From: an uncultured beta proteobacterium
GTDB taxonomy: Bacteria > Pseudomonadota > Gammaproteobacteria > Burkholderiales > SG8-41
Direction: 5' to 3'
DNA length: 64,000 nucleotides
NCBI GenBank assembly: GCA_902825845.1
Contig: CADECM010000022.1
Span: 160 to 64,159, forward strand
The notes under the pieces were generated by a model, which was not told where the DNA came from, did not search any database, and saw only the letters and a program-made list of their open reading frames with translations. How positions within the stretch are numbered: position 1 is the first letter of the stretch; each line of letters begins with the position of its first letter. Positions 5,148-56,911 of this stretch are shown piece by piece. The position numbers were made by a program, and so were the translations under genes.

Positions 5148-6254
5148 ATGGACGCCTATCCCGCCCGCTGGTGGCATCTGCTCGACGACGGGCGCATGCA
5201 GTGTGACCTGTGCCCGCGCGATTGCAGGCTGCATGACGGCCAGCGCGGCGCGTGTTTTGTGCGCGAGCGCCACGGCAACCAGATGGTGCTCACCACCTAC
5301 GGCCGTTCCTCCGGCTTTTGCATCGATCCCATTGAAAAGAAACCGCTGAATCAGTTTTATCCCGGCTCCAGCATACTGTCGTTCGGCACCGCTGGCTGCA
5401 ACCTCGCCTGCAAGTTCTGCCAGAACTGGGACATCAGCAAATCGCGCGACATGGATCGCCTTGCCGATCGGGCCACGCCCGAAGCCATTGCGCAGGCGGC
5501 GGTCAGGGGCGGCTGCAAAAGCGTGGCCTTCACCTACAACGATCCGGTGATTTTTGCCGAATATGCGATGGACATCGCCGATGCCTGCCACGCGGTCGGT
5601 GTGCAAACCGTCGCTGTCACCGCGGGCTACATCCACGATGCGCCGCGGCGCGCGTTCTTCGCCAAAATGGACGCTGCCAATGTCGATCTCAAGGCGTTTA
5701 TCGATGCGTTCTATTTCAAGCAGTGCGCGGCGCATCTGCAGCCGGTGCTGGATACGCTGGTATATCTGAAGCACGAAACGAATGTGTGGCTTGAAATCAC
5801 AACGCTGCTGATTCCCGGCAAAAACGATTCCGACGAAGAACTCACCACACAGTGCCAATGGATCATGCGGCACCTCGGCCCCGACGTGCCGCTGCACTTC
5901 ACCGCATTTCATCCGGATTACAAAATGCGTGATATCCACGCCACGCCGCCGGCCACGCTCACGCGCGCGCGCGACATCGCGTTAAAGGCGGGCTTGCATT
6001 ACGTGTATACCGGCAACGTGCACGACGAGCACGGCGGCTCGACGTACTGTCCCGGCTGCCAACAGCCGCTGATCCTGCGCGATTGGTATCGCATCGACGA
6101 ATACCGCATCACCGCCGACGGCAACTGTCCCCATTGTGGCGCTGCGATCGCCGGACGGTATGCGGAAAAGTTCGACAAGCCGTTTGGTCCGCGGCGCGTC
6201 CCGCTTGGCATCGGCCGCCAATCACCTCCAGGGCATTTTAATAAATTTGTTTAA
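5148..6254 (+). CDS. AmmeMemoRadiSam system radical SAM enzyme
   Basis: CNLACKFCQNW radical-SAM cluster motif plus N-terminal Cys-rich CDLCPRDC..GAC. ATG 5148 starts 3 nt after the upstream stop. Confidence 0.85.
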   Translation: MDAYPARWWHLLDDGRMQCDLCPRDCRLHDGQRGACFVRERHGNQMVLTTYGRSSGFCIDPIEKKPLNQFYPGSSILSFGTAGCNLACKFCQNWDISKSRDMDRLADRATPEAIAQAAVRGGCKSVAFTYNDPVIFAEYAMDIADACHAVGVQTVAVTAGYIHDAPRRAFFAKMDAANVDLKAFIDAFYFKQCAAHLQPVLDTLVYLKHETNVWLEITTLLIPGKNDSDEELTTQCQWIMRHLGPDVPLHFTAFHPDYKMRDIHATPPATLTRARDIALKAGLHYVYTGNVHDEHGGSTYCPGCQQPLILRDWYRIDEYRITADGNCPHCGAAIAGRYAEKFDKPFGPRRVPLGIGRQSPPGHFNKFV

Positions 6255-6270
6255 AATCCATTACTTATAA
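6240..6270 (+). repeat. AT-rich boundary motif, copy a
   Basis: AATAAATTTGTTTAAAATCCATTACTTATAA. Contains the TAA stop of the rSAM gene, and the convergent gene's stop lies 2 nt beyond it. Confidence 0.65.
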
Positions 6271-6271
6271 T

Positions 6272-6934
6272 CTACTCTCCGCCACAACCGCTGCCGCCGT
6301 CCGAACCGCCGTCACTGCTAAAGCCGAGATCGCCAAAGCCGCCGCTGCCCCCAAATTCGGTGGCACAGGTAACGCTAAGCGTGTTAGCGTCCCCCGGTTT
6401 ATCGCGTAATGCATCGCAATCAGGCGCGTAGCGAAAACCGTTTTCGATGTTGAGCTTGCTGTCGAGCGCAAACAACAACGGCAGGCGCGAGGGCGTCAAT
6501 GGATGGATGGTTTCATCGCGGCACGCCAGCACCCAGGTGCGCCGCAGGCCCTGATTGGCGACGGATTGCGACCCCAGCACCACCGCCGGCGTGTGATGCA
6601 AAAACTTGCCGAACGCCTTTTTGCAGAATGCATCGTAGTGTTTGGTGAACAGTATAAATTCGTGCCACAGGTCATCGACGACCTTGGACGGCATCGACAC
6701 GAACTCGCCCTTGGCCATCAGGTTGCACAAGAAGAATTTGCGCAAGCCGCGCGCGACCAGTTGCTGTTGTTTCAGGGTGAGATCGGGATATTTGGCCGCA
6801 AGCCGCGCCAGCAAACCCTGTGGAAATGAATACGTGCGTATGAATTCCGTACGCCTCATGCGTTGCAGCGCCTGGTACAGGCCGCCCGCAATGATGAAAG
6901 CCATGAAGGCGACAAAAAACGCGACCATCGTCAT
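6272..6934 (-). CDS. hypothetical membrane protein with Gly/Ser/Asp-rich C-terminal tail
   Basis: N-terminal TM helix MTMVAFFVAFMAFIIAGG, a conserved-looking DDLWHEFILFTKHYDAFC..HHTP block, and the tail GGSGGFGDLGFSSDGGSDGGSGCGGE. GGGGGA lies upstream of ATG 6934. Confidence 0.55.
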   Translation of the reverse strand: MTMVAFFVAFMAFIIAGGLYQALQRMRRTEFIRTYSFPQGLLARLAAKYPDLTLKQQQLVARGLRKFFLCNLMAKGEFVSMPSKVVDDLWHEFILFTKHYDAFCKKAFGKFLHHTPAVVLGSQSVANQGLRRTWVLACRDETIHPLTPSRLPLLFALDSKLNIENGFRYAPDCDALRDKPGDANTLSVTCATEFGGSGGFGDLGFSSDGGSDGGSGCGGE

Positions 6935-6998
6935 TGTTATTCCCCCTGTCGGCGGCCCTTGACGCCAGCGCCCGCCGGTATAATAGAGCCTTTTTATC

Positions 6999-9900
6999 AT
7001 GCCGTTGTTAGCACCACCACGGCCCGGCGAACGCGCCCGGGCCGGCCCCTTTCACGGCTCCAGCGATGCGCTTGCCATCGCCGAGTTGGCGGGCTCGGTG
7101 CGTCCGCTGCTGGCTATCACCGCGGACGCTACCACCGCGCAGCGGCTGCAAGGCGAGATCGCGTTCTTCGCCCCCGCGCTCAAAACCTGCGTCTTTCCTG
7201 ACTGGGAAACGCTGCCCTACGACACGTTTTCCCCGCATCACGATCTGGTGTCGGAACGGCTGGCCACGCTCTATGAAATGATGCGCGGCGCCTTCGATGT
7301 GGCCATCGTGCCGGTGACCACCGCGCTGACGCGCCTGATGCCGGTCGAGTACCTCGCCGCCAACACGTTTTTCTTCAAGCAGGGCGGCAAGCTCGCGATC
7401 GACGCATTGCGGCACCAATGCACCATCGCCGGCTACACCCATGTGACGCAGGTGGTGGCGCCCGGCGAATACAGCATCCGCGGCGGTCTCATCGATATTT
7501 TCCCGATGGGCAGCGCCCTGCCCTACCGCATTGATCTGTTCGACGAGGACATTGATTCCATCCGCAGCTTTGATGTGGATTCGCAGCGCTCGATCTACAA
7601 GGTGAACGAAGTGCGCCTGTTGCCCGCGCGCGAATTTCCGATGAACGAGGCTGCGCAGACACTGTTCCGGCAGAATTTTCGTATCAAGTTCGAAGGCGAC
7701 CCGTCGAAAAGCCGCGTCTACAAGGACGTCTCCAAGGGCGTGCCCAGTGCCGGCATCGAATACTACCTGCCGCTGTTCTTTGAAAGCACCGCACGCTTTA
7801 CCGACTACCTGCCGGCCGGCACGGTGGTCTGCGCCGTGCATGGGCAAGCCGCTCTGCAGGCAGCCGTCGACGCGTTCTGGCAGGACACCCACAGCCGCTA
7901 CGCCACCCTGCGCGGCGACCGCGCCAATCCGGTGATGCCGCCGCACGATCTGTTTCTGGCGCCGGACGAATTCTTCGGTTCCATCAAACCCTTTCCGCGG
8001 CTTGAATTTGTGCCGGCCGTCGCCGCGCCGGCGGAAGCAACCGGAGTCGTGGCGGATGCGCCCACAGCAGTGCTGCCCGCGCTGGGCGTGGAGCGCCGCG
8101 CTGACAATCCGCTGCACCGGCTGCACCAGTTCCTGGCGAGCTACTCCGGCCGCGTATTACTGCTCGCCGACAGCCCGGGCCGGCGCGAAACCATGCAAAC
8201 GTTTCTCGCCGAATATGATTTGCGTCCCGCGGCCGCCGCCAGCTACGCGGAATTCACCGCATCGGCCGAGCGCGTCATGCTCGGTGTGGCACCGCTGCAG
8301 ACCGGCTTTACGCTGGCGGATCACAGCCTCGCCATCATTACCGAAAACGAGCTGTATGCCACGCAGGCACGCAACCGCAATACACGCGAGGGTCGCAAAA
8401 CCACCGCCGAGGGCATGCTGCGCGACCTGTCCGAGGTCAAGACCGGCGATCCGGTGGTACATGAGCAGCACGGCATCGGCCGGTATCTCGGCCTGCACAG
8501 CATGGATCTGGGCGACGGCCCCGGCGGTCAACTATGCGAGTTCCTGACGCTGGAATACGCGCGTGGCGACAAGCTCTACGTGCCGGTGTCCAGCCTGCAT
8601 CTGATCAGCCGCTACAGTGGCGCCTCGCCGGAACAGGCGCCGCTGCACAGCCTCGGCGGCGAACAGTGGGAAAAGGCGAAAAAGAAGGCCGCCGAACAGG
8701 CGCACGACACCGCGGCCGAACTGCTCAACCTGTACGCGCAGCGCGCAACGCGCAAGGGCCACGCCTTCGCGCTCAAGCATCACGATTACGAAGCCTTTCG
8801 CGAAGGCTTTCCGTTCGAGGAAACCCCCGATCAGGCAGCCGCCATCAAGGCCACGCTCGACGATCTCACCAGCGGCAAGCCGATGGATCGCCTGGTATGC
8901 GGCGACGTGGGATTCGGCAAGACCGAAGTGGCATTGCGCGCGGCGTTCGTTGCCGTTGCTGACGGCAAACAGGTGGCGGTGCTGGTGCCCACCACCCTGC
9001 TGGCTGAGCAGCATTTCACCAGTTTCAGCGACCGCTTTGCCGACTGGCCGGTGAAGATCGCCGAGCTGTCACGCTTTCGTACGGCCAAAGAACAGACCGA
9101 GGCGTTGGCCGGGCTTGCCGCGGGCAGCGTCGACATCGCCATCGGCACCCACAAACTGGTGCAGCGCGGCGTCAAATTCAAGAACCTTGGCCTCGTCATC
9201 ATCGACGAGGAGCATCGCTTTGGTGTGCGCCACAAGGAGCAGTTGAAGGCGCTGCGTGCCGAGGTCGACGTGCTGACGCTGACCGCCACGCCGATTCCGC
9301 GCACCCTGGCGCTGTCGATGGAGGGCATGCGCGATTTTTCGGTGATCGCCACCGCGCCGCAGCGGCGTCTGGCGATAAAAACCTTCGTCACACGCTACTC
9401 CAAGGCGCAGATCCGCGAGGCCGCGCTGCGCGAACTCAAACGCGGCGGGCAGATTTATTTTTTGCACAATGACATCGACACCATCCGCCACGTCGAGGAA
9501 ACATTGACGCAGCTGCTGCCCGAAGCGCGCATCCGCGTGGCGCACGGGCAGATGCGCGAGCGCGAGCTGGAACTGGCGATGCGCGATTTCCATCAGCAGC
9601 GTTTCAACATTCTGCTGTGCACCACCATCATCGAAACCGGCATCGACGTGCCCACCGCCAACACTATCATCATCAACCGCGCCGACCGTTTCGGGCTGGC
9701 GCAATTGCACCAATTACGCGGGCGCGTTGGACGCTCGCACCATCAGGCCTACGCCTATCTGTTGCTGCCGGACGAGGGCAACATCACCACGCAGGCGAAA
9801 AAGCGCCTCGAAGCCATTCAGATGATGGAAGAACTGGGCTCCGGCTTCTTCCTCGCCATGCACGACCTGGAAATCCGCGGCGCGGGTGAAGTGCTGGGCG

Positions 9901-10448
9901 AATCGCAAAGCGGCGAAATGCAGGAGGTGGGCTTTAACATGTACGCCGCCATGCTCGATACCGCGGTGCGCGCGCTGAAGCAGGGCAAGGAGCCCGATCT
10001 TGCCGCGCCGCTGGGCGTGACCACCGAAATCAACCTGCATGTGCCCGCGCTGCTGCCCGCCACCTACTGCAGCGATGTGCATGAACGGCTGGTGCTCTAC
10101 AAGCGCCTCGCCAATTGCGAGAACGATGACGAACTGGAACGCCTGACCGAAGAACTGATCGACCGCTTTGGCGAACTGCCGGGCGCAACCCGTGCCTTGC
10201 TTGAGTGCCACCGGCTGCGCCTGGCAGGCAAGCCGCTGGGCATCTCAAAAATCGATGCCAGCGATGCAGCGATACAATTGCACTTCATTCCCAAACCGCC
10301 GATTGATCCGATGAAAATCATCAAGCTCATTCAGACCCGGCGCAATTACAAACTGGCGGGACAGGATCGTTTGCGTATCGAAATTGGCACCGATGACGTC
10401 GCCGCCCGCGTCGGCGTGATCCGCGACGTGTTTCGCGCGCTATCCTGA
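6999..10448 (+). CDS. mfd: transcription-repair coupling factor
   Basis: 1149 aa with helicase motifs GDVGFGKTE, IIDEEHRFG and LTATPIPRT, plus Mfd-like length and architecture. Confidence 0.95.
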   Translation: MPLLAPPRPGERARAGPFHGSSDALAIAELAGSVRPLLAITADATTAQRLQGEIAFFAPALKTCVFPDWETLPYDTFSPHHDLVSERLATLYEMMRGAFDVAIVPVTTALTRLMPVEYLAANTFFFKQGGKLAIDALRHQCTIAGYTHVTQVVAPGEYSIRGGLIDIFPMGSALPYRIDLFDEDIDSIRSFDVDSQRSIYKVNEVRLLPAREFPMNEAAQTLFRQNFRIKFEGDPSKSRVYKDVSKGVPSAGIEYYLPLFFESTARFTDYLPAGTVVCAVHGQAALQAAVDAFWQDTHSRYATLRGDRANPVMPPHDLFLAPDEFFGSIKPFPRLEFVPAVAAPAEATGVVADAPTAVLPALGVERRADNPLHRLHQFLASYSGRVLLLADSPGRRETMQTFLAEYDLRPAAAASYAEFTASAERVMLGVAPLQTGFTLADHSLAIITENELYATQARNRNTREGRKTTAEGMLRDLSEVKTGDPVVHEQHGIGRYLGLHSMDLGDGPGGQLCEFLTLEYARGDKLYVPVSSLHLISRYSGASPEQAPLHSLGGEQWEKAKKKAAEQAHDTAAELLNLYAQRATRKGHAFALKHHDYEAFREGFPFEETPDQAAAIKATLDDLTSGKPMDRLVCGDVGFGKTEVALRAAFVAVADGKQVAVLVPTTLLAEQHFTSFSDRFADWPVKIAELSRFRTAKEQTEALAGLAAGSVDIAIGTHKLVQRGVKFKNLGLVIIDEEHRFGVRHKEQLKALRAEVDVLTLTATPIPRTLALSMEGMRDFSVIATAPQRRLAIKTFVTRYSKAQIREAALRELKRGGQIYFLHNDIDTIRHVEETLTQLLPEARIRVAHGQMRERELELAMRDFHQQRFNILLCTTIIETGIDVPTANTIIINRADRFGLAQLHQLRGRVGRSHHQAYAYLLLPDEGNITTQAKKRLEAIQMMEELGSGFFLAMHDLEIRGAGEVLGESQSGEMQEVGFNMYAAMLDTAVRALKQGKEPDLAAPLGVTTEINLHVPALLPATYCSDVHERLVLYKRLANCENDDELERLTEELIDRFGELPGATRALLECHRLRLAGKPLGISKIDASDAAIQLHFIPKPPIDPMKIIKLIQTRRNYKLAGQDRLRIEIGTDDVAARVGVIRDVFRALS

Positions 10449-10463
10449 GTCACCACAAAAATT

Positions 10464-10493
10464 AAAATACCATTTAAAAACAGATACTTATAG
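10464..10493 (+). repeat. AT-rich boundary motif, copy b
   Basis: AAAATACCATTTAAAAACAGATACTTATAG, 16 nt after the mfd stop. Confidence 0.7.
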
Positions 10494-10555
10494 ATATTCC
10501 GATGGAACCCAAGGCACGCAGACGCCACATCCCGCCGCCAGTGTCAGGATTCGAC

Positions 10556-10912
10556 ATGCTGGCCGAACAACGCATTCGCGAGGCGCAGGAACAGGGCGTG
10601 TTCGACAATCTGCCGGGTGCAGGGGCGCCGCTCAAGCTCGATGACGACGCTATGGTGCCGGAAGAACTGCGCGCCGCATATCGCATTCTCAAGAATTCCG
10701 GCTATGTGCCGCCGGAAGTGGCCGCGCTGCACGATCTGCGCGAAGTGGAGCAGATGCTGGAACACGCCGTCGACGATGAAGAACGCCGTGTGCTCGCCGG
10801 CAAATTCAGCGCGCTGATGGCGCGCGCCGGCGTCCTGCGCGGGCGCCACTTCGCCATCGACAACGACTACTTTCAGAAAGTCGCCGAAAAGCTGGGCAGC
10901 CGCCGGCGCTAG
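10556..10912 (+). CDS. DUF1992 (DnaJ-C28-like) domain protein
   Basis: MLAEQRIREAQEQGVFDNLPGAGAPL N-terminus typical of the family. AGGA lies upstream of ATG 10556. Confidence 0.7.
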   Translation: MLAEQRIREAQEQGVFDNLPGAGAPLKLDDDAMVPEELRAAYRILKNSGYVPPEVAALHDLREVEQMLEHAVDDEERRVLAGKFSALMARAGVLRGRHFAIDNDYFQKVAEKLGSRRR

Positions 10913-10920
10913 CCGCGCGC

Positions 10921-11586
10921 TCAGCCGTTGGCGGCCTTGCGCGGCTGCATAGACTGCAGCATTGCGTCCACCAGCGTTTCCGCCTCCTGCGCGCCGGACA
11001 CACCCACCGCGCGGTTGAAAATGAAAAACGGCACGCCGTTGATGCCCGCGTTGCGCGCCTCAATGTCGGAATTTGCCACCACATCGCGATCGGCATCGCT
11101 CGCCAGGTACGCCTTCGCGGCGGCTTCGTCCAGACCGGCCCGTTGGGCGATCGCGGCCAACGCGTCGATGTCGGTGAGGTTGACGCCTTCAGTGAAGTAG
11201 CCATTGAACAACACTTCCGCGACTTCGTCCTGCCGTCCGTGTTGGTCGGCATAGTGCAGCAGGCGATGGGCGTTCAGCGTGTTGGGCTGCACCGCGATCC
11301 TGTCGAAAGCGAATGGTATTCCCACGGTTTCACCGACCTTGCGCACGCGTTCGTAGGTATTGCCACGCGCGCCGAACTTGCGCGCGATGTATTCCGCGCG
11401 CGGAATGCCCTCGCCGGGCAGATCGGGATTCAACTGAAATGGCAGCCAGCGCACGGCCGGCTTGACATCGGGACGCTGCTCGCTGAGCAGCTTTAACGCG
11501 GCTTCAAGCCGGCGGCTCCCGATGAAGCACCAGGGTCAAACCACGTCGGAAACGATGTCGATCTGCAACTCGAATTGCTGGCTCAT
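10921..11586 (-). CDS. DsbA/FrnE-like thiol:disulfide oxidoreductase with an in-frame TGA at the first active-site position (U-P-W-C); candidate selenoprotein, or otherwise a nonsense pseudogene
   Basis: ATG 11586 has GAGG upstream and lies 12 nt after the acyl-CoA ligase stop. It reads MSQQFELQIDIVSDVV-TGA-PWCFIGSRRLEAALKLL...VRWLPFQLNP in frame with the ORF 10921..11454. The TGA is at 11536..11538. The family normally has VCPWC at this position. Confidence 0.6.
11497..11514 (-). promoter_or_regulatory. candidate SECIS-like hairpin downstream of the DsbA-like TGA
   Basis: mRNA CGC(C)GGC-UUGAA-GCCGCG, 22-39 nt after the UGA. GC-rich stem with one bulge; the loop contains U and G. Confidence 0.3.
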
Positions 11587-11597
11587 GGCGGCCTCGC

Positions 11598-13208: not shown

Positions 13209-13220
13209 GGCTCTTCCCCC

Positions 13221-13410
13221 CCTAGTGTCCTGAGTCAGAAATTCGTAGCTGAATTCTTTTGCCCGTTTGCCGATACTTTGTCGCGCTCCTCACCGGGTGC
13301 CCAACCCTGTCTCGTCGCGCTTCGCGTCTCGTCAAACAGGCAAAAGAATTCGGAGAGTCCATCTTTCTGCCCTAATAGTGTTCTACGAATTTCTGACTCA
13401 GGACACTAGG
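13221..13410. repeat. MITE-like / nested-palindrome intergenic element
   Basis: Perfect 28-bp terminal inverted repeats: CCTAGTGTCCTGAGTCAGAAATTCGTAG at 13221..13248 and its exact reverse complement at 13383..13410. An inner 19-bp inverted repeat lies at 13251..13269 and 13333..13351 with 1 mismatch. No ORF is inside. Confidence 0.6.
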
Positions 13411-13421
13411 ATGATCCGGGA

Positions 13422-15101: not shown

Positions 15102-15195
15102 GGCGGTTGCGTCTACAGAGTGCTTTGCTGCCCATTATCGACCAATGCCCGCTCGGGGCGCCACACGGCATTGCAATCCCCTGCAGCAGATAATT

Positions 15196-15222
15196 CTTAA
15201 GTATTTGTTTTTATTGTATTTT
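15196..15222 (-). repeat. AT-rich boundary motif, copy c
   Basis: The minus strand reads AAAATACAATAAAAACAAATACTTAAG. It overlaps the PrpD-like stop codon and lies ~95 nt upstream of the acyl-CoA dehydrogenase start. Confidence 0.7.
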
Positions 15223-16597
15223 ATTTACGAAGCGCCGTAACGGATACCGCACCGTCGAAGAACCCCGGTACCGATTTCAGAAATGCACTCAGTTGCGCCT
15301 CGTCCCATCCGCCAAACAGCGCATTGCGGCGGAACTTGTCCTCGATCTCGGCGCGCGTGAGCGGCTCCTGCGCGCCACCACGAATATGATTTTGCCGTTC
15401 CTCCACCACGCTGCCGTCTTTCAACGTCATGCGCACGTGGCCGGTGTAGGCCTTGGGATACGGATTGTTGGGGTCCACGACATAGCGCACCTTGGACGAC
15501 AGCGCAAGAATGCGCTCATCGCGCACGGTGTCCTCGGTAAATGCCGCAAGCCCCGCGCCGCCGGTCACAAACGCCACCGCGATATTGAACGGCGCGCTGA
15601 ACTTGGCCGCATAGTCGTTGGCCGGACGATGCTTGGACGGCAGCGGATCCCACAGCCGATGCACATAACCTTCGGCGGTTTCGCACAGGATGTCGGTCAC
15701 GTCTTCCGGCTTGATACCCTTTCTCGCAAGACGCAACGCGCAATCGACATAGGGCTGGTTCATGGTGCCGGTGGCATAGGGCTTGAAGGTAATGACATCG
15801 GTGTACCACTGTTTGCCGAAACCCTCGGTGAGCACGCCGTAATCGCCTTCCGCATTGCGCGCAAACGCATAGTAAAACCCATGCGTGCCCTCGAACACGG
15901 TGCGCGGCCCGAGAAACCCCTGCTGCCCGAAGCGCGCAGCCTGGATGCCGATCTTCGCCGCCCACCCCGCATGCAGGCGCTTGGTCCAAGCGCCCTCGGC
16001 CAGGTACTCGATGATGCCACCCGCCATGCTGCCAGCGATGCCCAGCGCATCCACGGTCTGCCTGCGATTCAGGCCCATGGTGACGCTCACTGCGAGCGTA
16101 GCCGCCATCGCGCCGAGAACGCCAGTCGGATGGAAGCCCGACTTGTGTATCGCCTTGGGGATCACCATCGACAGCCGGCACAGGGTTTCAATCCCCGCCA
16201 CCATGCCCTTGAACGCCGCCGTGCCATCGCAGCCAAAGCGCTCACACGCTGCCAGCACTGCGGGCATGATCACCGCGCTCGAGTGCACCGGACCACCCTC
16301 GAAGGTATCGTCAAAGTCTTCGCCGTGCGCCGCGCAACCGTTGATCATGGCCGCGGTTTCCGCTGCATAGGTCGCGCGATGTCCGATGGCGGTTGCCGCA
16401 CCGCCGCTGTCGACGCCCGCGACAACCGCCTTGATGTAGTCGGTATTGCGCGCCGCAACGCACAGGCCCACCACGTCGATCAGCAGTTCTTCGATGCGCG
16501 TGCGCACCGCCGCGGGAACGGCACTGACCTCCAGCGCCAGCGCCTGATCGGCGATGCGCTCTGCAACAGCCATCGTTTCATTCCGGGTCACAGTCAT
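15221..16597 (-). CDS. MmgE/PrpD family protein
   Basis: 458 aa from ATG 16597, 10 nt after the upstream stop. PrpD-like N-terminal regulatory and helical domain sequence. The 589-aa ORF extension overlaps the upstream gene and was rejected. Confidence 0.85.
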   Translation of the reverse strand: MTVTRNETMAVAERIADQALALEVSAVPAAVRTRIEELLIDVVGLCVAARNTDYIKAVVAGVDSGGAATAIGHRATYAAETAAMINGCAAHGEDFDDTFEGGPVHSSAVIMPAVLAACERFGCDGTAAFKGMVAGIETLCRLSMVIPKAIHKSGFHPTGVLGAMAATLAVSVTMGLNRRQTVDALGIAGSMAGGIIEYLAEGAWTKRLHAGWAAKIGIQAARFGQQGFLGPRTVFEGTHGFYYAFARNAEGDYGVLTEGFGKQWYTDVITFKPYATGTMNQPYVDCALRLARKGIKPEDVTDILCETAEGYVHRLWDPLPSKHRPANDYAAKFSAPFNIAVAFVTGGAGLAAFTEDTVRDERILALSSKVRYVVDPNNPYPKAYTGHVRMTLKDGSVVEERQNHIRGGAQEPLTRAEIEDKFRRNALFGGWDEAQLSAFLKSVPGFFDGAVSVTALRK

Positions 16598-16607
16598 GGC
16601 CTTACGG

Positions 16608-18380: not shown

Positions 18381-18559
18381 GGCGGCTCTCCAGACATTGC
18401 AAAATTTTTGCGGGGCTCCGGGATTCCCGCCCCCTTTCGATTTTAGTCTCAATTGCGCTTGCGCGGCAGGCACCCAACGCCTGCTGCGATCCCTGAATCG
18501 ACGCCCAGACGCCAGCCCCTGTAAAATCCGCGTTTCCTGCAGAAAAAGCGAGAACCGCC

Positions 18560-20155
18560 ATGGACATGTTCGACTTTCAGTTTCCCTATCCGTCACAGCG
18601 TATGCCCGTGCTTGCGCGCAACTGTGTCGCGACCTCGCAACCGCTGGCGGCGCAGGCCGGCCTGCGCATGATGCTGAAAGGCGGCAACGCGGTGGACGCC
18701 ATCCTTGCCTCGGCCATCTCGCTGACCGTACTGGAACCCACCAGCAATGGCATCGGCAGCGACGCGTTCTGCATCATGTGGGACGGCAAACAGCTGAAGG
18801 GTCTGAACGCCTCGGGCCGCTCGCCGGCCGCGTGGACGCCCGACCGGTTCAAGGGCAAAAGTGCGATGCCGGCGCGTGGCTGGGATTCGGTGACGGTGCC
18901 CGGCGCGGTATCGGCATGGGTCGAGATGTCGGCAAAATATGGAAAGCTACCCTTCGCCGACCTGTTCGAACCCGCCATCAAGTACGCGAGCGATGGTTAC
19001 ATGGTTTCGCCAACGATTTCCCGCCTGTGGGCCGGTGGCGTCGCCGAGTTGAGCGCACAGCCGGGCTTTGCCGAGGCATTCATGCCGCATGGCCGCGCGG
19101 TGCAGGCCGGCGAAACCTTCGTGGCCAAGGCGCACGCGGCAACGCTTCAGCGCATTGCCGAGACCAAAGGCGAGGCTTTTTATCGCGGCGATCTCGCTGA
19201 AAAAATCGCGGCTTTCGCCAAACAACACGGCGCTGCGCTGACGCTCGAGGACCTGGCAACGCACACCCTCGACTGGGTGGAGCCTGTCGGCATCGATTAT
19301 CGTGGCTACACGCTGCACGAGATTCCGCCCAACGGCCAGGGCATCGCGGCGCTGATCGCGCTGGGCATCCTCGAAAACTTCGATGTCGCCGCGCTGCCGA
19401 TCGATTCCCCCGACTGCATGCACCTGAAAATCGAGGCGATGAAACTCGCGTTTGCAGACATCAACGAATACGTGTCGGACATATCCACCATGCGCGTGAC
19501 GCCGGCGCAGATGCTCGACAAGGCCTATCTGAAGGAGCGCGCCAAACTGATCGACATGAAAAAGGCCGGCACGCCGTCCTTCGGCACGCCCAGCAGGGGC
19601 GGCACGGTGTATCTCACCGCTGCCGACGAGTCGGGCATGATGGTGTCGTACATTCAGTCCAACTACTCCGGTTTCGGATCGGGCGTGGTGGTGCCCGGCA
19701 CCGGCATCAGCCTGCAGAATCGGGGCTATGGCTTCAGCCTGAAACCCGGCCATGCCAACGTCGTCGCGCCGAAGAAGCGCCCGTTTCACACCATCATTCC
19801 CGGCTTCCTGACCAAAGCCGGCCAGCCGCTGATGAGTTTCGGCGTGATGGGCGGCTCAATGCAGGCGCAGGGCCATATGCAGGTGGTTTCGCGCATGGTC
19901 GATTACCACCAGAACCCGCAGGCAGCCAGCGACGCACCGCGCTGGCGCATCGACAGCGGGGTCACGGTCGGCATCGAGCACGGCGTGCCCGCCGCGACCA
20001 TTGCCGCGCTGCAGGCGCGCGGCCATGACATGCCGCAGGCGGATCGCTGGAGCACGGACTTCGGCCGCGCGCAATTGATTTACAAGATGGAAAACGATGG
20101 CGGCTACTTCGCCGCTTCGGAACGGCGGGCCGATGGCCAGGCGGTAGGTTACTAA
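18560..20155 (+). CDS. gamma-glutamyltransferase family protein (paralog 2)
   Basis: 531 aa with the GGNAVDAILA motif and the nucleophile context GGTVYLTAAD. Divergent from paralog 1. Confidence 0.85.
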   Translation: MDMFDFQFPYPSQRMPVLARNCVATSQPLAAQAGLRMMLKGGNAVDAILASAISLTVLEPTSNGIGSDAFCIMWDGKQLKGLNASGRSPAAWTPDRFKGKSAMPARGWDSVTVPGAVSAWVEMSAKYGKLPFADLFEPAIKYASDGYMVSPTISRLWAGGVAELSAQPGFAEAFMPHGRAVQAGETFVAKAHAATLQRIAETKGEAFYRGDLAEKIAAFAKQHGAALTLEDLATHTLDWVEPVGIDYRGYTLHEIPPNGQGIAALIALGILENFDVAALPIDSPDCMHLKIEAMKLAFADINEYVSDISTMRVTPAQMLDKAYLKERAKLIDMKKAGTPSFGTPSRGGTVYLTAADESGMMVSYIQSNYSGFGSGVVVPGTGISLQNRGYGFSLKPGHANVVAPKKRPFHTIIPGFLTKAGQPLMSFGVMGGSMQAQGHMQVVSRMVDYHQNPQAASDAPRWRIDSGVTVGIEHGVPAATIAALQARGHDMPQADRWSTDFGRAQLIYKMENDGGYFAASERRADGQAVGY

Positions 20156-20184
20156 AAATAGTTGTTTAAAAACAAATACTTACA
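20155..20184 (+). repeat. AT-rich boundary motif, copy d
   Basis: AAAATAGTTGTTTAAAAACAAATACTTACA. Overlaps the stop codons of both convergent genes (20153..20155 and 20180..20182). Confidence 0.7.
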
Positions 20185-20908
20185 TTCTAAGCGTTGAAGC
20201 GTTGTCTTCCTCCAGCAGCGCTTGTAATGTCCTGGACTTGAATTCGCGGTGATACAACACCGCGATCACCCACGCCGTTGCCACCACCATCAGCACCGGA
20301 TGCAGGAACCAGCCCATCGCCGCCACGGCGAAATAGTACGAGCGCAAGCCGTGATTGAAATTCGACATCGCGTAAGACGTGATGCGGGCGATGCGATTGA
20401 TTTGTGCGGCGAATTGCTCCGGGTTTTCCTTGGGCATCTTCGGGCCGGCCGCCACCAGAATGCCTGCGAAATTGACCTGCCGTATCGACCAGGAAAACTT
20501 AAAGAACGCGTGCACGAAAATCAGCACCAGCAGCAGCATCTTCAGTTCCAGCAGCCGCGATGAGGCCTTGACCGTAAACGGCAGTCCCGACACCAGATCC
20601 TGCGCCTGCTGCACATAGCCCATTGACGCCAGCAACGCACCGAGAATCAGCATGGTGGTGGAGGCAAAAAACTGCGAACTGCGCGTAATGTTGCGCATCA
20701 CGTTGACATCGACCATGCGGTTGTCGCGCCCGATCATCTGCACCATCCACTCGCGGCGAAAGTGGTCCATTCTCGTATGCAGGCTGGGCACCCGCCTGCC
20801 GTGCCAATCCGCGAATACCACGTAGCCGACCCAGCCCGCCGCGAATAGCAACACGGCGGCAAGGTCGGACCAGGTGAGACTGAGTTCAGTAAATATTCTG
20901 CCGAGCAT
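20180..20908 (-). CDS. DUF599 family membrane protein
   Basis: Multi-TM protein whose N-terminus WSDLAAVLLFAAGWVGY and overall pattern resemble DUF599. Start ATG 20908; an alternative is 20929. Confidence 0.6.
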   Translation of the reverse strand: MLGRIFTELSLTWSDLAAVLLFAAGWVGYVVFADWHGRRVPSLHTRMDHFRREWMVQMIGRDNRMVDVNVMRNITRSSQFFASTTMLILGALLASMGYVQQAQDLVSGLPFTVKASSRLLELKMLLLVLIFVHAFFKFSWSIRQVNFAGILVAAGPKMPKENPEQFAAQINRIARITSYAMSNFNHGLRSYYFAVAAMGWFLHPVLMVVATAWVIAVLYHREFKSRTLQALLEEDNASTLRM

Positions 20909-21024
20909 GATGCCGCGATTGTAAAGCAATCATCCGCGCGCCGGTCCGGGCGTTTACATTACAATCCTGCTCCACAATACTCGAACCGCCGACAAACGCT
21001 GCCTTTACCCGGCAAGGAATCGCC

Positions 21025-21705: not shown

Positions 21706-21755
21706 ATTCCGCGAGGCGAACACCGGCTCGCGCGAGGGCGCGGCCCACGCAACCG

Positions 21756-22953: not shown

Positions 22954-22970
22954 GCCGGCGCACACCACAA

Positions 22971-27790: not shown

Positions 27791-28075
27791 TATTTCTACT
27801 GGCTGGACACCGACGCCAGGCTGGAAGCCGCGCAACTCGTCAACGATGGCATCGCGAACATGGCCGGCGCGTTTCCGGAGCGCCCGATGGGCATGGGCAC
27901 AATGCCGATGTAGCATCCCGATGCCGCGGTGGCGGAACTGGAACGCATCGTCAAACAACACGGGGCGAAGCCCACCCCATCGCGATAATCTCCAAAGTAG
28001 AGGGCTTGAGCGCTCGTGAGCGGGAACAGATTTTCAGCGGCTCGGCGTTGCGCCTGATGGCGCGAAAATTTATAA
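27791..28075 (+). pseudogene. amidohydrolase (ACMSD-like) gene remnant
   Basis: Fragments LVNDGIANMAGAFPERPMGMGTMPM-TAG-HPDAAVAELERIVKQHG. In another frame, a C-terminal-like EGLSAREREQIFSGSALRLMARKF. About 285 nt remain of a gene that is normally ~1 kb, and the N-terminal metal-binding region is absent. Confidence 0.5.
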
Positions 28076-28099
28076 GATATTGTTTTTAAACAATTTTTT
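28072..28099 (-). repeat. AT-rich boundary motif, copy e
   Basis: The minus strand reads AAAAAATTGTTTAAAAACAATATCTTAT. Lies between the amidohydrolase remnant and the tagF stop. Confidence 0.65.
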
Positions 28100-28133
28100 A
28101 AAATACCATTGATGCGGCCAGCGGGCTGCGCGC

Positions 28134-37510: not shown

Positions 37511-37664
37511 CCGGATCCTCTTTCCTACCGCCAGCCAAATTACGTCCCCAAAACAATCACTTGCAGCCCGCAGCCATTTTATACCTTGCGCAGCAGCTGC
37601 CACACCAGGCACTGCGACGCGGAGCGCGGCGCCGTCAAATATGCAACCCGATACGACATGAATA

Positions 37665-37694
37665 TCATAGCTTATTGATTTTAAATTATATTTT
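37665..37694 (-). repeat. AT-rich boundary motif, copy f
   Basis: The minus strand reads AAAATATAATTTAAAATCAATAAGCTATGA, ~155 nt upstream of the tagH start. Confidence 0.65.
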
Positions 37695-37933
37695 ATAAGA
37701 GTACGTTACGGCGGCGGCGTTGCGATGGTAGACCTGCGCGCCGGGCAGCACACCTCAAGTTGCTGCCTGCGCCCGCCGATAGATTGATTATGAAGGAAGG
37801 TGTTGCCAACCGTGGCAGCCTGCGGCGGTTAGCGGCACACGCGAGACACCGTCGCCGGCCGGGAAACGCCGGATTCACGGGCAATCAGGCGCAAGCGCGT
37901 CAAAACAGGAATCGCTGTAACAATCAAATCGTT

Positions 37934-39170: not shown

Positions 39171-39298
39171 GCGCCGGACGTAACCTTGCCGCGGCAGTGC
39201 AACGCCATTGCCGCGGCGCGCAGTGCTGGCACGCGTGCAGCACCGCCGCACACCCGCCTGACATTGCCGAGCAAGCACCGCACCCGGTAGTGGAATCT

Positions 39299-39328
39299 AT
39301 ATAAGTTATTGTTTTTATTGAATATTTT
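39299..39328 (-). repeat. AT-rich boundary motif, copy g
   Basis: The minus strand reads AAAATATTCAATAAAAACAATAACTTATAT, 12 nt from the GGDEF gene stop. Confidence 0.7.
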
Positions 39329-39339
39329 TATTTCAACCC

Positions 39340-40440: not shown

Positions 40441-40651
40441 AGGGGTTAGTCCTTCACGAACAGCATCGATTGGCGTATTTTCATGGGGTATCCATGCATG
40501 TTCCGGGGCGCGCGGCGGCGCCTTGCCGGCACGCCGGCATCCCTGGTTTCACGTGCAAATATATCCGCGCCGGCGAGCTGCCATGGCATGGAGGAAAGGC
40601 TAAAAACCGAGTCATATCGGCGTTTGCCCGGGAATAATACTTTCAGCAACA

Positions 40652-42547: not shown

Positions 42548-42551
42548 GATT

Positions 42552-43694: not shown

Positions 43695-43770
43695 TGTTTT
43701 TTTCCTTGCTCTGTTTACGCTATCCGGATGGGATTCCGGCATGAATGGCCGCGCTGGCACGGCATCACGT

Positions 43771-44631: not shown

Positions 44632-44891
44632 GTATTCCCACCCCATTGATTGGTGCGCGCAAAATCCCGACACGGCGCCTGTCACAGACACCATCGGCAA
44701 AGTGATATGAATCTTAACGGCCGGGCGCAACGGCCAATCCGGCGAACAGGGCCTGGGTATGCATGCATTTCACGTCTTTGCCCCGGCACGCGCAACCACC
44801 CCTGCCGCAGGGTTGGCCACCCTGTGACAGGCGCGGCACGGCAGCGATAACCACGCAAGAGAATACCGCTGCACATTCCGGCCGCGGGACA

Positions 44892-46106: not shown

Positions 46107-46158
46107 AAGCGCTATATCGGCATTTCGAGCGCCATCTTGAGGCGTAGCGGATCAACAA

Positions 46159-46186
46159 AAAATACAATAAAAACATATACTTATGA
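46159..46186 (+). repeat. AT-rich boundary motif, copy h
   Basis: AAAATACAATAAAAACATATACTTATGA. Lies between the HD-GYP start and the SDR stop. Confidence 0.7.
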
Positions 46187-46225
46187 CTTTGGCCCCAGAA
46201 GACGCCGAGAGCGGCGCCACACGCG

Positions 46226-54189: not shown

Positions 54190-54289
54190 GAATGCCCTCC
54201 TGATGACCCACGGGGCGCAACGCCCCCGCCCACTATCCATGGCGGAGCGGTTTTTGCGATTGATGCAGATCAATCAGGCATTCCGATAA

Positions 54290-54318
54290 AAAATATCAAT
54301 AAAAACAAATAGTTAAAT
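54290..54318 (+). repeat. AT-rich boundary motif, copy i
   Basis: AAAATATCAATAAAAACAAATAGTTAAAT, in the divergent region between the hemerythrin gene and the FNT gene. Confidence 0.7.
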
Positions 54319-54369
54319 TACATCACCTTATGCTCGACCGCGCGCCGGCGTGTGCCCCGCGGCAATCAT

Positions 54370-55333: not shown

Positions 55334-55465
55334 ACCCTGAATCACACCCCATCGATCCAAAGAAAATTCAAACGATACGCACACGGGCGGCGGCGTTGTG
55401 CCGTGCGCGGGCCTGCTATATATTGAGGCGGTCCGCGCAGCCTTGAGCCATTCGATCCTGAACTT

Positions 55466-55495
55466 AAATTATCGTTTAAAATCAAATACTTATGG
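55466..55495 (+). repeat. AT-rich boundary motif, copy j
   Basis: AAATTATCGTTTAAAATCAAATACTTATGG. The ATG of the downstream hydrolase gene is inside the motif. AATCAAATACTTA fits WATCAANNNNTTR. Confidence 0.7.
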
Positions 55496-56673
55496 AAAAC
55501 GCACCGACGCACAGCGACGATCACTATTTCATGTATTTCCCCGGCAACTACCGCTGGTCGGCGGGGTTTCTCAGCATGTTGAGTTGCTCCACATGGGGCG
55601 GCGCCGACATCGGCGAAGTGGATCGCATCGGACAGATCCTCAAAGCCGCGCCCAAACAAACCGACGAAGCGTGGTTCGATGCCTGCGTCAAGGTGGCGCA
55701 GGAGACCCACGCGCATGCTGCGCGCTACGAAAAATCAGGCCACCGCGTGTCGGCAGCGCCGTTTTATCTGCGCGCCTGCAAGTACTACCAGATGGCCGAG
55801 CGTTTTCGCACACCCAAGGATGCGCGCGCGCTGGAAATTTATCAAAAAAGCATCGACTGCTTTCACGCGTTCACGCGCATGAGCGACGTCAGGATCGATA
55901 TCGTCGAAGTGCCGTTCGTCGACGGCAGCCTGCCCGGCTATTTCGTGCACGCGCAGAACAGCAATGCCGAACGCAAACCCGCGGTGGTGTTTTTTGACGG
56001 GCTCGACGTCACCAAGGAACTGCTCTACATGCGCGGCGTGCCCGACCTCATCAAGCGCGGCATTTCGGTGCTGATCATGGACGGCCCCGGCACCGGTGAA
56101 GCGATCCGCTTTCGCAAACACTATCTGCGCCACGACTACGAAGTCGCCGGCAGCGCCTGCGTGGACTGGCTGGAACAGCGCGCCGACGTCAATCCAAAAC
56201 GCATCGGCATCGTCGCCAACAGTCTCGGCGGGTATTACGCGCCGCGCTGCGCCTCGATGGAGCCGCGCTTTGCCGCGTGCGTGGCGTGGGGCGCGATCTG
56301 GGACTACTACGCGACGTGGAAGCGCCGCATCGACGCCGCGTTCAACGCGGCGATGTCGGTGCCCGGCCACCATATCATGTGGATCCTCGGCGTGGATACG
56401 CTTGATGCGGCGCTACAAAAGCTCGAACCGTTCCGCCTCGACGGCGTGGTGCAAAAGATGCGCTGTCCGTTCCTCGTCGCGCACGGCGCCGAAGACGAAC
56501 AGGTGCCGCTCGCCGATGCGCAGGCGCTCTACAACGCGTGCGGCGCCAGCGACAAAACCCTGCGCGTGTTCACGCCCGAGGAAGGCGGCGCGCAACACTG
56601 CATGCGCGACTACGCGGTGCTCGGCGTGGCGGAAATGTGGAACTGGTTTGAGGATAAACTGGTGCGCAACTGA
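55492..56673 (+). CDS. alpha/beta hydrolase fold protein
   Basis: 393 aa with the nucleophile elbow context VANSLGGYYA and later AHGAEDEQVP. Confidence 0.75.
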   Translation: MENAPTHSDDHYFMYFPGNYRWSAGFLSMLSCSTWGGADIGEVDRIGQILKAAPKQTDEAWFDACVKVAQETHAHAARYEKSGHRVSAAPFYLRACKYYQMAERFRTPKDARALEIYQKSIDCFHAFTRMSDVRIDIVEVPFVDGSLPGYFVHAQNSNAERKPAVVFFDGLDVTKELLYMRGVPDLIKRGISVLIMDGPGTGEAIRFRKHYLRHDYEVAGSACVDWLEQRADVNPKRIGIVANSLGGYYAPRCASMEPRFAACVAWGAIWDYYATWKRRIDAAFNAAMSVPGHHIMWILGVDTLDAALQKLEPFRLDGVVQKMRCPFLVAHGAEDEQVPLADAQALYNACGASDKTLRVFTPEEGGAQHCMRDYAVLGVAEMWNWFEDKLVRN

Positions 56674-56881
56674 TCCGCTGCGCGGACCCTTGCGGCCGGT
56701 GATGCCGGTGACATTACCTGTGCCGTCGTGCCGGCAGATGCGGCGCCTGTTCCTGGCGTCGACCTTTCGGGTGAGGCGGTTACGAAGGTCGTAGCCATTG
56801 TGCCTGGCGCTGTTGCCTGGAACGCGGGATCGCCCCCCGCCATCACGTATACACCGTCGCGCCACGCCTGGTGCGCGGCAT

Positions 56882-56911
56882 AAAATATCATTTAAAAACA
56901 GATAGTTATAA
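56882..56911 (+). repeat. AT-rich boundary motif, copy k
   Basis: AAAATATCATTTAAAAACAGATAGTTATAA, 6 nt from the stop of the 56917..57669 gene. Confidence 0.7.

Follow-up and report, generated by a model that had tools for sequence, protein, structure and literature searches.

A lineage-restricted AT-rich repeat at gene boundaries of uncultured Burkholderiales resembles IHF sites in sequence and geometry

What keeps a short AT-rich sequence at one gene boundary after another on a GC-rich chromosome? The question is raised by a 64-kb stretch of DNA from an uncultured member of the Burkholderiales (64,000 nucleotides; the window), in which an initial annotation had described eleven copies of such a motif, on both strands and spanning positions 6240–56911.

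The repeat and its eleven copies

The repeat is real. A PWM built from the aligned copies recovers exactly 11 sites in the window (scores 47–53), seven on the plus strand and four on the minus strand, in full agreement with the original count and span. The remaining matches scoring ≥18 are shifted or reverse-strand readings of the same 11 sites, and none exceeds 38. The degenerate pattern first proposed, with up to three mismatches allowed, is matched 8 times compared to 0.00 expected from 100 dinucleotide shuffles, and a 15-nt core is matched 10 times compared to 0.12 expected, both far above chance. A separate repeat search regains the family as D2 (plus-strand copies) and D3 (minus-strand copies), and the window contains 12 AT islands (30 nt, GC ≤27%), of which 11 are copies of the motif. 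The motif is directional and ∼35 nt long, with a refined consensus (positions 1–35) of ttw AAAAWA wtS WW TAAAA W CAR ATAS TTA YR ww and a conservation of more than 40 bits. Neither conservation nor symmetry was detected past ∼37 nt, where the motif ends abruptly and the flanks have background composition. The copies are listed below, with the coordinates of the 35-nt PWM windows.

M1, 6237..6271, plus strand, TTTAATAAATTTGTTTAAAATCCATTACTTATAAT, PWM score 48.5: takes up a 17-nt convergent spacer between the stops of a radical-SAM gene (6254) and a minus-strand ORF (6272) (Pfam).
M2, 10460..10494, plus strand, AATTAAAATACCATTTAAAAACAGATACTTATAGA, 49.2, an exact match to the pattern first proposed: begins 12 nt past the stop of mfd (10448), leaving 7 nt before the ATG (10502) of a DJC28_CD-domain gene, with no Shine-Dalgarno sequence between motif and ATG.
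M3, 15194..15228, minus strand, GTAAATAAAATACAATAAAAACAAATACTTAAGAA, 52.0: overlies the stop of a PrpD/MmgE gene (gene end 15221), 93 nt upstream of the start of an AidB-like acyl-CoA dehydrogenase gene (15101).
M4, 20152..20186, plus strand, CTAAAAATAGTTGTTTAAAAACAAATACTTACATT, 47.6: constitutes an entire 24-nt convergent spacer and provides both stops, those of a gamma-glutamyltranspeptidase gene (20155) and a DUF599 gene (20180).
M5, 28069..28103, minus strand, TTTTAAAAAATTGTTTAAAAACAATATCTTATAAA, 50.3: 31 nt past the stop of tagF (gene end 28134), which closes a T6SS cluster; a TctC gene (start 27701) lies downstream.
M6, 37664..37698, minus strand, TTATAAAATATAATTTAAAATCAATAAGCTATGAT, 49.1 and 38.3 in two scans: lies where a T6SS FHA gene and a plus-strand ORF diverge; this copy is the weakest and carries CTA instead of TTA.
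M7, 39298..39332, minus strand, AATAAAAATATTCAATAAAAACAATAACTTATATA, 52.7: 8 nt past the stop of a GGDEF gene (gene end 39340) that is convergent with a small plus-strand ORF.
M8, 46153..46187, plus strand, CAACAAAAAATACAATAAAAACATATACTTATGAC, 47.2: flanked by two minus-strand genes, at the HD-GYP start (46106) and the SDR stop (46226), and opposite in orientation to both.
M9, 54285..54319, plus strand, GATAAAAAATATCAATAAAAACAAATAGTTAAATT, 48.9 and 56.3 in two scans: in the spacer from which a hemerythrin-domain gene and a formate/nitrite transporter gene diverge.
M10, 55462..55496, plus strand, ACTTAAATTATCGTTTAAAATCAAATACTTATGGA, 47.7: its core AATCAAATACTTA is a perfect WATCAANNNNTTR, and motif positions 31–33 double as the ATG of a hydrolase gene (55492).
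M11, 56878..56912, plus strand, GCATAAAATATCATTTAAAAACAGATAGTTATAAC, 50.1, an exact match to the pattern first proposed: a convergent DsbD_2 gene stops 5 nt away (gene end 56917), and the hydrolase stop lies 205 nt before the motif.

By gene calls, all 11 copies are intergenic or lie over stop or start codons and none falls in the body of a CDS, as first described. No hairpin was found within the motif (mean MFE of the 35-mer −0.48 kcal/mol) or beside the copies (flank MFEs of −10.8 and −8.8, compared to −10.9 kcal/mol for controls). Since it lacks the imperfect palindrome or stable stem-loop of a REP element, and any hairpin that could terminate transcription, the motif belongs to neither class, and the initial annotation was right to set both aside.

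Match to IHF sites

The 13-nt consensus of IHF is WATCARNNNNTTR (PMC2709558). Motif positions 19–31 agree with it at 8.09 of 9 expected matches, a value that was reached by 1 of 20,000 column permutations of the motif and by none when an A/T tract at the distance seen in H′ was also demanded. At the level of sequence, this bears out the early suggestion that the core is IHF-like and preceded by an A tract. When conservation is measured in a less biased set (53 copies), it peaks at the positions specified in WATCARNNNNTTR, with frequencies of 1.00 for A19 and A20, 0.98 for C22 and A23, 0.90 for R24, 0.96 for T29, 1.00 for T30 and 0.98 for A31. At W21, where the E. coli consensus has T, 74% of the copies carry A and 26% carry T. 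Positions 5–10 are A/T in 99% of cells, and this tract lies 8 nt ahead of W19. The H′ site of lambda attP, taken from the sequence record, reads AAAAAA-N8-TATCAA-N4-TTG, which is the geometry of the motif, position for position. The CA/TG steps at positions 12–14 and 22–23 are 9–10 bp apart; in the IHF-DNA complex of Rice et al. (1996), the two proline-induced kinks reportedly have this spacing as well.

When the MAG-derived PWM was run over the lambda genome (96,948 positions), its second-ranked match was 72–100, between R3 and R2 of cosB, where IHF site I1 has been placed (PMC4669245). The core of I1, AATAAAAACATTAAGTTATG, is identical to M8 at 17 of 20 positions, including the A at position 21. 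Ranks 1 and 3 are upstream of pL and rank 8 adjoins the attP core. Four of the top ten matches fall in known IHF regions, compared to a mean of 1.9 for column-permuted PWMs (P=0.055), a comparison that is confounded by AT-richness, as three of the ten most AT-rich lambda 29-mers also lie in such regions. In E. coli, ChIP-seq yielded 1042 (IhfA) and 1022 (IhfB) binding regions, ∼1 per 4.5 kb, and less than 10% of IHF motif occurrences are upstream of operons (PMC3333857). The genomic behaviour of our motif, with 11 copies in 64 kb and depletion from divergent spacers, agrees with that of these mapped sites. No sigma-54 promoter with an upstream copy was found; thus, the classical IHF context could not serve as a test.

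The motif shares with lambda H′ and cosB I1 an asymmetric, hairpin-free layout of ∼30–35 bp, as well as the consensus positions and the spacing between A tract and core. However, the lambda sites are single functional sites inside recombination or packaging machinery, whereas the motif is one stereotyped sequence that recurs every ∼5–6 kb in many genomes. It is far more conserved than usual IHF sites, also at positions that IHF is not known to read (T16, A17–18, A25-T26-A27 and S28, the last hardly ever A/T). This conservation, which includes Y32 and R33, favors another dedicated DNA-binding protein as the reader of the motif, either a novel nucleoid-associated or boundary protein or a topoisomerase-recruiting factor, as do the restriction of the motif to one clade of ∼35 MAG species, compared to the presence of IHF throughout the Proteobacteria, and its placement where genes end or converge, sites at which positive supercoils build up. 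We nevertheless consider such a protein fairly unlikely, since the proposal names no specific candidate, the fit to the IHF consensus and H′ geometry is improbable by chance (1 in 20,000), and a known IHF site, lambda cos I1, is so nearly identical to the core. As IHF occurs in most GC-rich proteobacteria without such a stereotyped repeat, recognition by IHF would not by itself account for what is specific to this lineage.

Lineage range, conservation in place and position relative to genes

In a scan of species-representative genomes, the motif was nearly restricted to ∼35 uncultured Burkholderiales/Betaproteobacteria MAGs. It occurs there repeatedly and at conserved places, and is thus not confined to the window. 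Motif strings are absent from the papers in the literature searched, in keeping with the first impression that this is not a described repeat family. Several MAGs of the clade are labelled 'Bordetella parapertussis', a label that looks wrong.

Orthologous spacers retain their copies while the surrounding DNA diverges, with a core identity of 0.81, whereas the flanks reach 0.70 and 0.58 and unrelated sequence 0.49. Orthologous copies persist, differing by point changes, where the genes are only 73–80% identical. At positions 12–15, TCAA and TGTT exchange freely at one and the same site, giving rise to apparent 'subtypes'. M10 has orthologous copies in loci L001 and L123–L126, and in distant orthologues the NNNN segment drifts while CAA...TTA is retained (AAAATCAAGTAGTTA in L124, AAAAACAAGGACTTA in L001). 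One gain or loss, L024:3836 compared to L099, is without clean boundaries. The copies appear to arise and decay through point mutation under selection, and not through transposition.

The motif takes no account of gene orientation and is under-represented in spacers that hold only promoters. It is co-oriented with genes in 51 cases and anti-oriented in 53 (p=0.92), and its density is highest in convergent spacers and low in divergent ones (convergent > tandem > divergent), the latter holding 11 copies compared to 31.6 expected by length (chi-square p=8e-5). Convergent spacers hold 25 copies, including the 17- and 24-nt spacers made wholly of motif (M1 and M4), which leave no room for a promoter. 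Many copies directly follow or overlap stop codons, with convergent and tandem spacers enriched, as judged from gene calls and not mapped transcription units. Just 5 of 157 copies (≤3%) are inside called genes, four of them beside doubtful start codons. With no orientation bias, with divergent spacers depleted, and without hairpins, TIRs or target duplications, the motif is not a promoter, terminator, REP element or MITE. A search of positions 5000–24999 likewise gave no terminator-like match at the copies. A dif/XerCD-type site (28 bp, two 11-bp partially palindromic arms, one per replicon or flanking modules on plasmids) was rejected, as most copies lack dyad symmetry and 11 occur in 64 kb of chromosome.

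Lineage-specific over-representation, equal in both orientations, is also what characterizes DNA uptake signals, such as the DUS of Neisseria and the USS of the Pasteurellaceae, which could have been built up here via biased uptake of self DNA and recombination. The sequence is conserved across species with copies gained and lost through point mutation and not indels, its length of ∼30 nt with A/T tracts is that of the extended USS, and the 3′ ends of genes are a common place for known uptake sequences too. However, USS and DUS are frequent in coding DNA, whereas the motif has few intragenic copies, most of which look like start-codon miscalls; its density of ∼1 per 5–6 kb or lower compares to ∼1 per kb for USS and DUS; clade loci showed no inverted pairs of the kind that act as terminators; in sequence the motif is unrelated to the known DUS and USS; and an uptake role gives no reason for the close fit to IHF geometry. 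We regard uptake as distinctly unlikely, and as slightly less likely again an uptake or self-recognition signal of this uncultured Burkholderiales family in which the IHF-like bendability reflects the mechanics of threading DNA through the uptake pore and not IHF binding. If that were true, no uptake sequence would have been known before outside the Neisseriaceae and Pasteurellaceae, nor an AT-rich one from a GC-rich genome, where coding constraints would hold it to spacers.

The initial annotation also raised a mobile process, of which the copies would be scars or targets; they could likewise be remnants or non-autonomous copies of a mobile element. Many near-identical intergenic copies fit this idea, and the order convergent > tandem > divergent is that reported for REP elements and MITEs; Pseudomonas REPs and Neisseria Correia elements resemble the motif in high copy number, extragenic and lineage-specific occurrence, convergent enrichment and depletion from promoter regions. 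The hydrolase gene flanked by M10 and M11 is found in at least four different contexts among relatives, and homology between the window and L001 begins within M10. Yet the abrupt end of conservation, the absence of dyad symmetry, hairpins, terminal inverted repeats and target-site duplications, the persistence in place of orthologous copies that differ by substitutions and exchange 'subtypes' at one site, and the chance-level matches in annotated plasmids and phages all disfavor mobility, which we judge to be very improbable. A transcription or RNA signal (a promoter, for example with a sigma-S-like −10 ATACTTA, a factor-dependent terminator or an A/U-rich translation enhancer) is scarcely credible, despite the likeness of ATACTTA to an extended −10 element, the start codons that adjoin the motif without Shine-Dalgarno sequences (M2, M10 and L001) and the copies directly past stop codons, given the lack of preferred orientation, the convergent and all-motif spacers, the absence of flanking hairpins and of a sigma-70 consensus match at any copy, the unrelated RNAs that the two orientations would produce, and the failure of any Rfam family to attain its gathering score in the window.

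A putative architectural site

On balance, and with confidence a little better than even, we read the motif as a lineage-wide family of strong putative sites for IHF or a very close IHF/HU-family paralogue. Positions 19–31 (A-A-W-C-A-R-NNNN-T-T-A) would form the asymmetric recognition element, the A/T tract at 5–10 would be the upstream dA+dT element clamped by the protein body, and the CA/TG steps at 12–14 and 22–23 would mark the two proline-induced kinks. We infer from this correspondence that IHF may bind the copies, bending the DNA sharply by ∼160 degrees or more. Spaced at ∼5–6 kb and mostly at transcription-unit ends, bound copies could serve as architectural or topological punctuation of the chromosome, acting at the DNA level regardless of orientation and possibly as insulators. 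The motif probably aids chromosome folding or partition, and not the starting or stopping of genes. The specific proposal of a segregation signal found no support; strand bias relative to replication is weak.

Among known repeats, the family would correspond to the IHF-binding RIB/BIME-1 elements of E. coli, minus their hairpins. RIB/RIP is an IHF site in the L linker of BIME-1 (Boccard & Prentki 1993, cited in PMC3333891). Both are repeated extragenic IHF-type sites, and the motif, too, prefers spacers with a gene 3′ end. In contrast, the RIB site lies between two inverted REP palindromes, which are absent here. The motif is therefore not a BIME, and no link to REP-associated transposases is expected.

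The motif provides a signature by which contigs of this uncultured lineage can be binned and classified, and gene callers should heed it because it supplies stop codons and adjoins start codons. If the copies are IHF sites, the lineage would offer a clean natural system in which nearly every AT island of a GC-rich chromosome is one stereotyped strong NAP site, placed at the edge of a transcription unit. The old question of whether repeated extragenic NAP sites of the RIB/BIME type act as topological or domain boundaries would become testable, and the case would also show that selection on a protein site can by itself sustain such repeat families, with neither the REP hairpins nor the RAYT transposases of enterobacteria.

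The repeat and its anatomy

The repeat in this window is real. The pattern proposed in the initial annotation matches eight times, compared with 0.00 matches expected from shuffled sequence, and the same check on a 15-nt core gives 10 matches against 0.12 expected. A position weight matrix (PWM) built from the aligned copies sets 11 sites (scores 47–53; M1 to M11 in order of position) apart from all else, in agreement with the count made originally by eye. As reported, copies lie on both strands, with seven reading forward on the plus strand and four on the minus strand. The family was also recovered by an independent repeat finder (as D2 and D3), and 11 of the 12 AT islands of the window are motif copies. 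The sole island without the motif, at 23519–23549 (CTTTCGATGAAAACAAACAAAAAAACCTTTG), lies between two minus-strand genes.

The conserved length is ∼34–37 nt, and the flanks outside it have background composition. The claimed lack of a hairpin holds as well, with a mean minimum free energy of −0.5 kcal/mol and flanks that fold no better than control sequence, and an Rfam search of the window returned no family at its gathering score. Approximately two-thirds of the copies from the clade (the uncultured Burkholderiales/Betaproteobacteria MAGs carrying the motif) were ascertained with a fixed search pattern; the profile was recomputed on 53 copies not chosen by that pattern, namely the window's 11 and secondary copies.

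Motif profile in the 53 copies not chosen by the search pattern (PWM numbering)
Positions 5–10: A/T only, mostly A
Position 13: C or G, 81%
Positions 14–15: A/T
Positions 16–20: T16 (0.96), A17–A20 (0.85–1.00)
Positions 21–24: W21 (A 0.74, T 0.26), C22 (0.98), A23 (0.98), R24 (0.90)
Positions 25–28: A25 (0.77), T26 (0.79), A27 (0.91), S28 (0.97)
Positions 29–31: T29 (0.96), T30 (1.00), A31 (0.98)
Positions 32–33: Y32, R33
Positions 34–39: AT-rich tail

Distribution and evolution of the copies

A scan of the species-representative genome collection with the pattern AAAATAN{3,6}TAAAAACANATASTTA gave matches at no fewer than 118 loci. About 107 of the matches listed come from ∼35 distinct uncultured MAG assemblies with a Burkholderiales or Betaproteobacteria label; a few of these loci instead bear the name "Bordetella parapertussis", "uncultured Bordetella" or Nitrosomonadales, and the motif-bearing MAG loci among the matches listed have a GC content of 56–68%. 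The other ∼10 matches listed are single matches in AT-rich genomes, which we read as chance. Based on this distribution, the motif is a hallmark of one lineage. BLAST against annotated plasmids and phages gave chance-level matches only, and the motif strings are absent from the literature searched. The motif-carrying MAGs titled "Bordetella parapertussis" or "uncultured Bordetella" (loci L011, L019, L033, L038, L050, L056, L064, L070, L088, L098 and L101) derive from environmental samples, apparently lake, at 57–62% GC, and look like misclassified members of this uncultured Burkholderiales lineage.

Among contigs fetched via a homologous protein, L001 has motif copies and L123 and L124 have weaker ones; L004 (15.5 kb, from a relative at 84% protein identity) has degenerate versions only. 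The PWM gives a score of at least 30 to just 76 of the 240 AT islands of the clade loci that were not ascertained with the search pattern. A related but distinct string is found in other AT islands of the clade (L024 5884–5928, L031 2101–2147 and L017 4078–4128; reverse strand ...TTATAAATCAATAMCATG / AAAATCAATATGTTACG), which may represent a degenerate or variant subfamily, retaining ATCAA but with another ending.

The motif is kept in all nine pairs of orthologous spacers compared, whose flanking genes are 73–80% identical; five of these pairs have one member not chosen by the search pattern. Identity is 0.81 in the core, 0.70 and 0.58 in the two 40-nt flanks and 0.49 for unrelated sequence, and positions 16–23 and 29–31 are unchanged in every pair except L073/L084 (A vs T at position 17). 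The subtypes TCAA and TGTT at positions 12–15, both of which contain a CA/TG step, interchange at the same orthologous site and thus represent free positions rather than mobile-element lineages. At the site of M10 (55462, plus strand), substitutions have eroded the copy of a 94%-identical relative (L125/L126: A20G, T30C and loss of the A tract), and more distant orthologues retain CAA...TTA with four varying spacer bases (AAAATCAAGTAGTTA in L124, AAAAACAAGGACTTA in L001). Gain or loss of a copy was seen once (L024:3836 compared to L099), without clean boundaries, and no sign of transposition was found at the orthologous sites compared. These pairwise comparisons indicate turnover by point mutation, with some constraint holding the copies. 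A MITE was rejected, as the copies are conserved in place and lack terminal inverted repeats and target duplications.

The α/β-hydrolase gene between M10 and M11 (55492–56673) occurs in at least four gene neighbourhoods in relatives at 80–95% identity (L001, L004 and L123–L126). Homology between the window and L001 starts inside M10 (55472), and rearrangements may have their breakpoints at copies of the motif.

Genomic context

The window has a GC content of 62–66%, with a negative GC skew along its whole length. Gene calls and Pfam matches identify ordinary proteobacterial chromosomal genes, including the following.

Window genes
mfd
two γ-glutamyltranspeptidase genes, paralogues arranged head to head, 16608–20155
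type VI secretion system (T6SS) cluster, 28134–37612, minus strand: tagF, tssM (icmF), tssL (dotU-OmpA), tssK, tssJ and fha
c-di-GMP gene block, 39340–46106: GGDEF, PAS-GGDEF-EAL, and HD-GYP with DUF3391
P-type ATPase gene
TctC (Bug-family) receptor gene

The closest homologues of one window protein are metagenomic sequences, together with MAG proteins that carry a Betaproteobacteria or Burkholderiales label, and an exact-match protein index has no entry for the window's Mfd or DJC28_CD-domain protein. Two other repeats were noted in the window. A 221-nt direct repeat (71% identity; 1060–1280 and 1763–1983) lies inside two neighbouring minus-strand ORFs, which are probably tandem paralogues. 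A ∼190-nt element (13221–13410), in the spacer between an AMP-binding-enzyme gene and an AidB-like gene, is bounded by 28-nt terminal inverted repeats without a mismatch (CCTAGTGTCCTGAGTCAGAAATTCGTAG) and contains a further inverted pair (GAATTCTTTTGCC / GGCAAAAGAATTC). It resembles a MITE or a long structured RNA, and none of the 128 fetched loci contains it.

A home-made codon-usage caller, for which stops are exact and starts approximate, was applied to the window and to 106 clade loci (831 kb), and 157 copies with a PWM score of at least 36 were placed in context.

Placement of 157 motif copies relative to called genes
Tandem spacers, co-oriented: 51 copies; both tandem classes together, 524 spacers and 2.1 copies per kb of spacer
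Tandem spacers, anti-oriented: 53 copies; spacers and density pooled with the co-oriented class
Convergent spacers: 25 copies; 93 spacers; 2.7 copies per kb of spacer
Divergent spacers: 11 copies; 95 spacers; 0.65 copies per kb of spacer
Inside a called gene: 5 copies, 4 of which adjoin doubtful start codons
At a locus edge: 12 copies

The orientation of the motif relative to the genes is random (51 vs 53, p = 0.92). Its spread over spacer types is not the one predicted from spacer length (chi-square p = 8e-5), mainly due to its depletion from divergent spacers (11 observed vs 31.6 expected). Copies often overlap and supply stop codons, and M1 (6237, plus strand) and M4 (20152, plus strand) are themselves entire convergent spacers of 17 and 24 nt, respectively. 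Spacers with the motif are longer than those without it, by a median of 27 nt (convergent) and 41.5 nt (tandem). In long tandem spacers, the motif lies close to one gene or the other, a bimodal placement that is probably due in part to the approximate start-codon calls. Within the window, copies flank predicted transcription units or divergent pairs of them. M5 (28069) and M6 (37664) stand exactly on either side of the T6SS cluster, which has no copy inside, and M7 (39298) and M8 (46153) enclose the c-di-GMP block. Three small ORFs without a Pfam match (37760–39170) lie between M6 and M7.

In this context, neither a directional promoter or terminator nor a role at the RNA level is tenable. A promoter had been considered since some copies end at ATG and ATACTTA resembles a sigma-S −10 element; however, there is no orientation bias, copies fill 17–24-nt convergent spacers, and none matches the sigma-70 consensus. 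Promoters of phage or archaeal type were dropped given the chromosomal gene content, and a terminator or REP element given the lack of hairpins.

With strands assigned by GC skew, the A-rich motif strand in the clade loci and window is more often the lagging one (82 vs 53 of 135 copies, p = 0.016). This preference is weak and may reflect ordinary strand-compositional skew, as leading strands carry more T than A. Some genes start at or a few bases from the 3′ end of the motif (window 10494–10504 and 55488–55494; L001 9999–10003; ACTTATG, ACTTACAATG and ACTTATAGATATTCCGATG); no Shine-Dalgarno (SD) sequence is visible at these starts, and translation of these genes may therefore begin on an A/U-rich leader independently of an SD.

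Relation to IHF sites and possible function

Positions 19–31 of the motif read A-A-W-C-A-R-NNNN-T-T-A, matching the IHF consensus WATCARNNNNTTR as quoted in PMC2709558. Seven of the ten most conserved positions fall among the nine specified by IHF. The expected match of the profile to the consensus is 8.09 of 9, a value equalled by one of 20,000 composition-preserving column permutations, and by none of 20,000 when the permutation must also place an A/T tract correctly. Phage lambda attP, which reads AAAAAA, GCATTGCT (8 nt), TATCAA, TTTG and TTG in the sequence record, corresponds to the motif position for position in the A tract (5–10), C22 A23 A24 and T29 T30 R31.

The lambda genome was also scanned with a PWM of the unascertained copies, scored against lambda base composition (96,948 positions). 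Rank 8 adjoins the attP core, at what we take to be the H2 site of IHF, and the H′ site of attP is at rank 28. Rank 2 is at 72–100 (minus strand) in cosB, directly right of R3 (which includes bp 56–59); the IHF site I1 is located between R3 and R2 (PMC4669245, PMC4856287). Its core, AATAAAAACATTAAGTTATG, is identical to M8 at 17 of 20 positions, including the A at position 21. The hits upstream of pL, a promoter stimulated by IHF (Giladi et al. 1998, cited in PMC3708714), take ranks 1 and 3. Four of the top ten hits are in known IHF regions, compared to a mean of 1.9 for column-permuted PWMs (P = 0.055); these regions belong to the most AT-rich stretches of the lambda genome, and three of the ten most AT-rich 29-mers also fall in them. 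Given this control, the scan lends weak support, and the argument for IHF rests primarily on the consensus and geometry test and the identity with I1, which uphold the IHF-like site favored in the initial annotation.

In E. coli, ChIP-seq mapped IhfA to 1042 regions and IhfB to 1022, and <10% of the motif occurrences lay upstream of operons (PMC3333857); the density and placement of the present motif fit such sites as well. A sigma-54 context was of little use: the 831 kb yielded only four candidate promoters, and no motif copy lay near any of them. The palindromes, terminal inverted repeats and target duplications that define RIB/BIME-1 (E. coli repeats holding an IHF site), REP elements and MITEs were tested for and are absent. 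With RIBs the family shares the idea of an IHF site repeated outside genes, which in RIBs lies near the 3′ ends of transcription units (Boccard & Prentki 1993, cited in PMC3333891).

Two other readings retain room: a different, dedicated DNA-binding protein and a DNA uptake signal. The sequence is more stereotyped than IHF needs (T16–A18, A25–A27 and S28), and other GC-rich Burkholderiales are not known to keep an equivalent. Uptake sequences share over-representation and orientation neutrality with the motif; however, they occur in coding DNA, from which the motif is almost absent. The motif would work like an IHF site and passes the sequence tests for one. We lean towards IHF, or a close paralogue, as the binding partner.

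The data show a conserved DNA-level element, independent of orientation, that matches an IHF site in sequence and geometry and mostly lies at gene ends. IHF or a close paralogue would bind each copy and bend the DNA sharply; such bends, every few kilobases, would organize the chromosome, and the array may restrict how far transcription-driven supercoiling spreads from one unit to the next, a role proposed for E. coli BIMEs (PMC3333891, PMC6907758). We rate the motif as a stand-alone, hairpin-less, lineage-wide family of predicted IHF-type sites, which appears to be undescribed, is widespread in this uncultured clade and makes the question of boundary elements testable.
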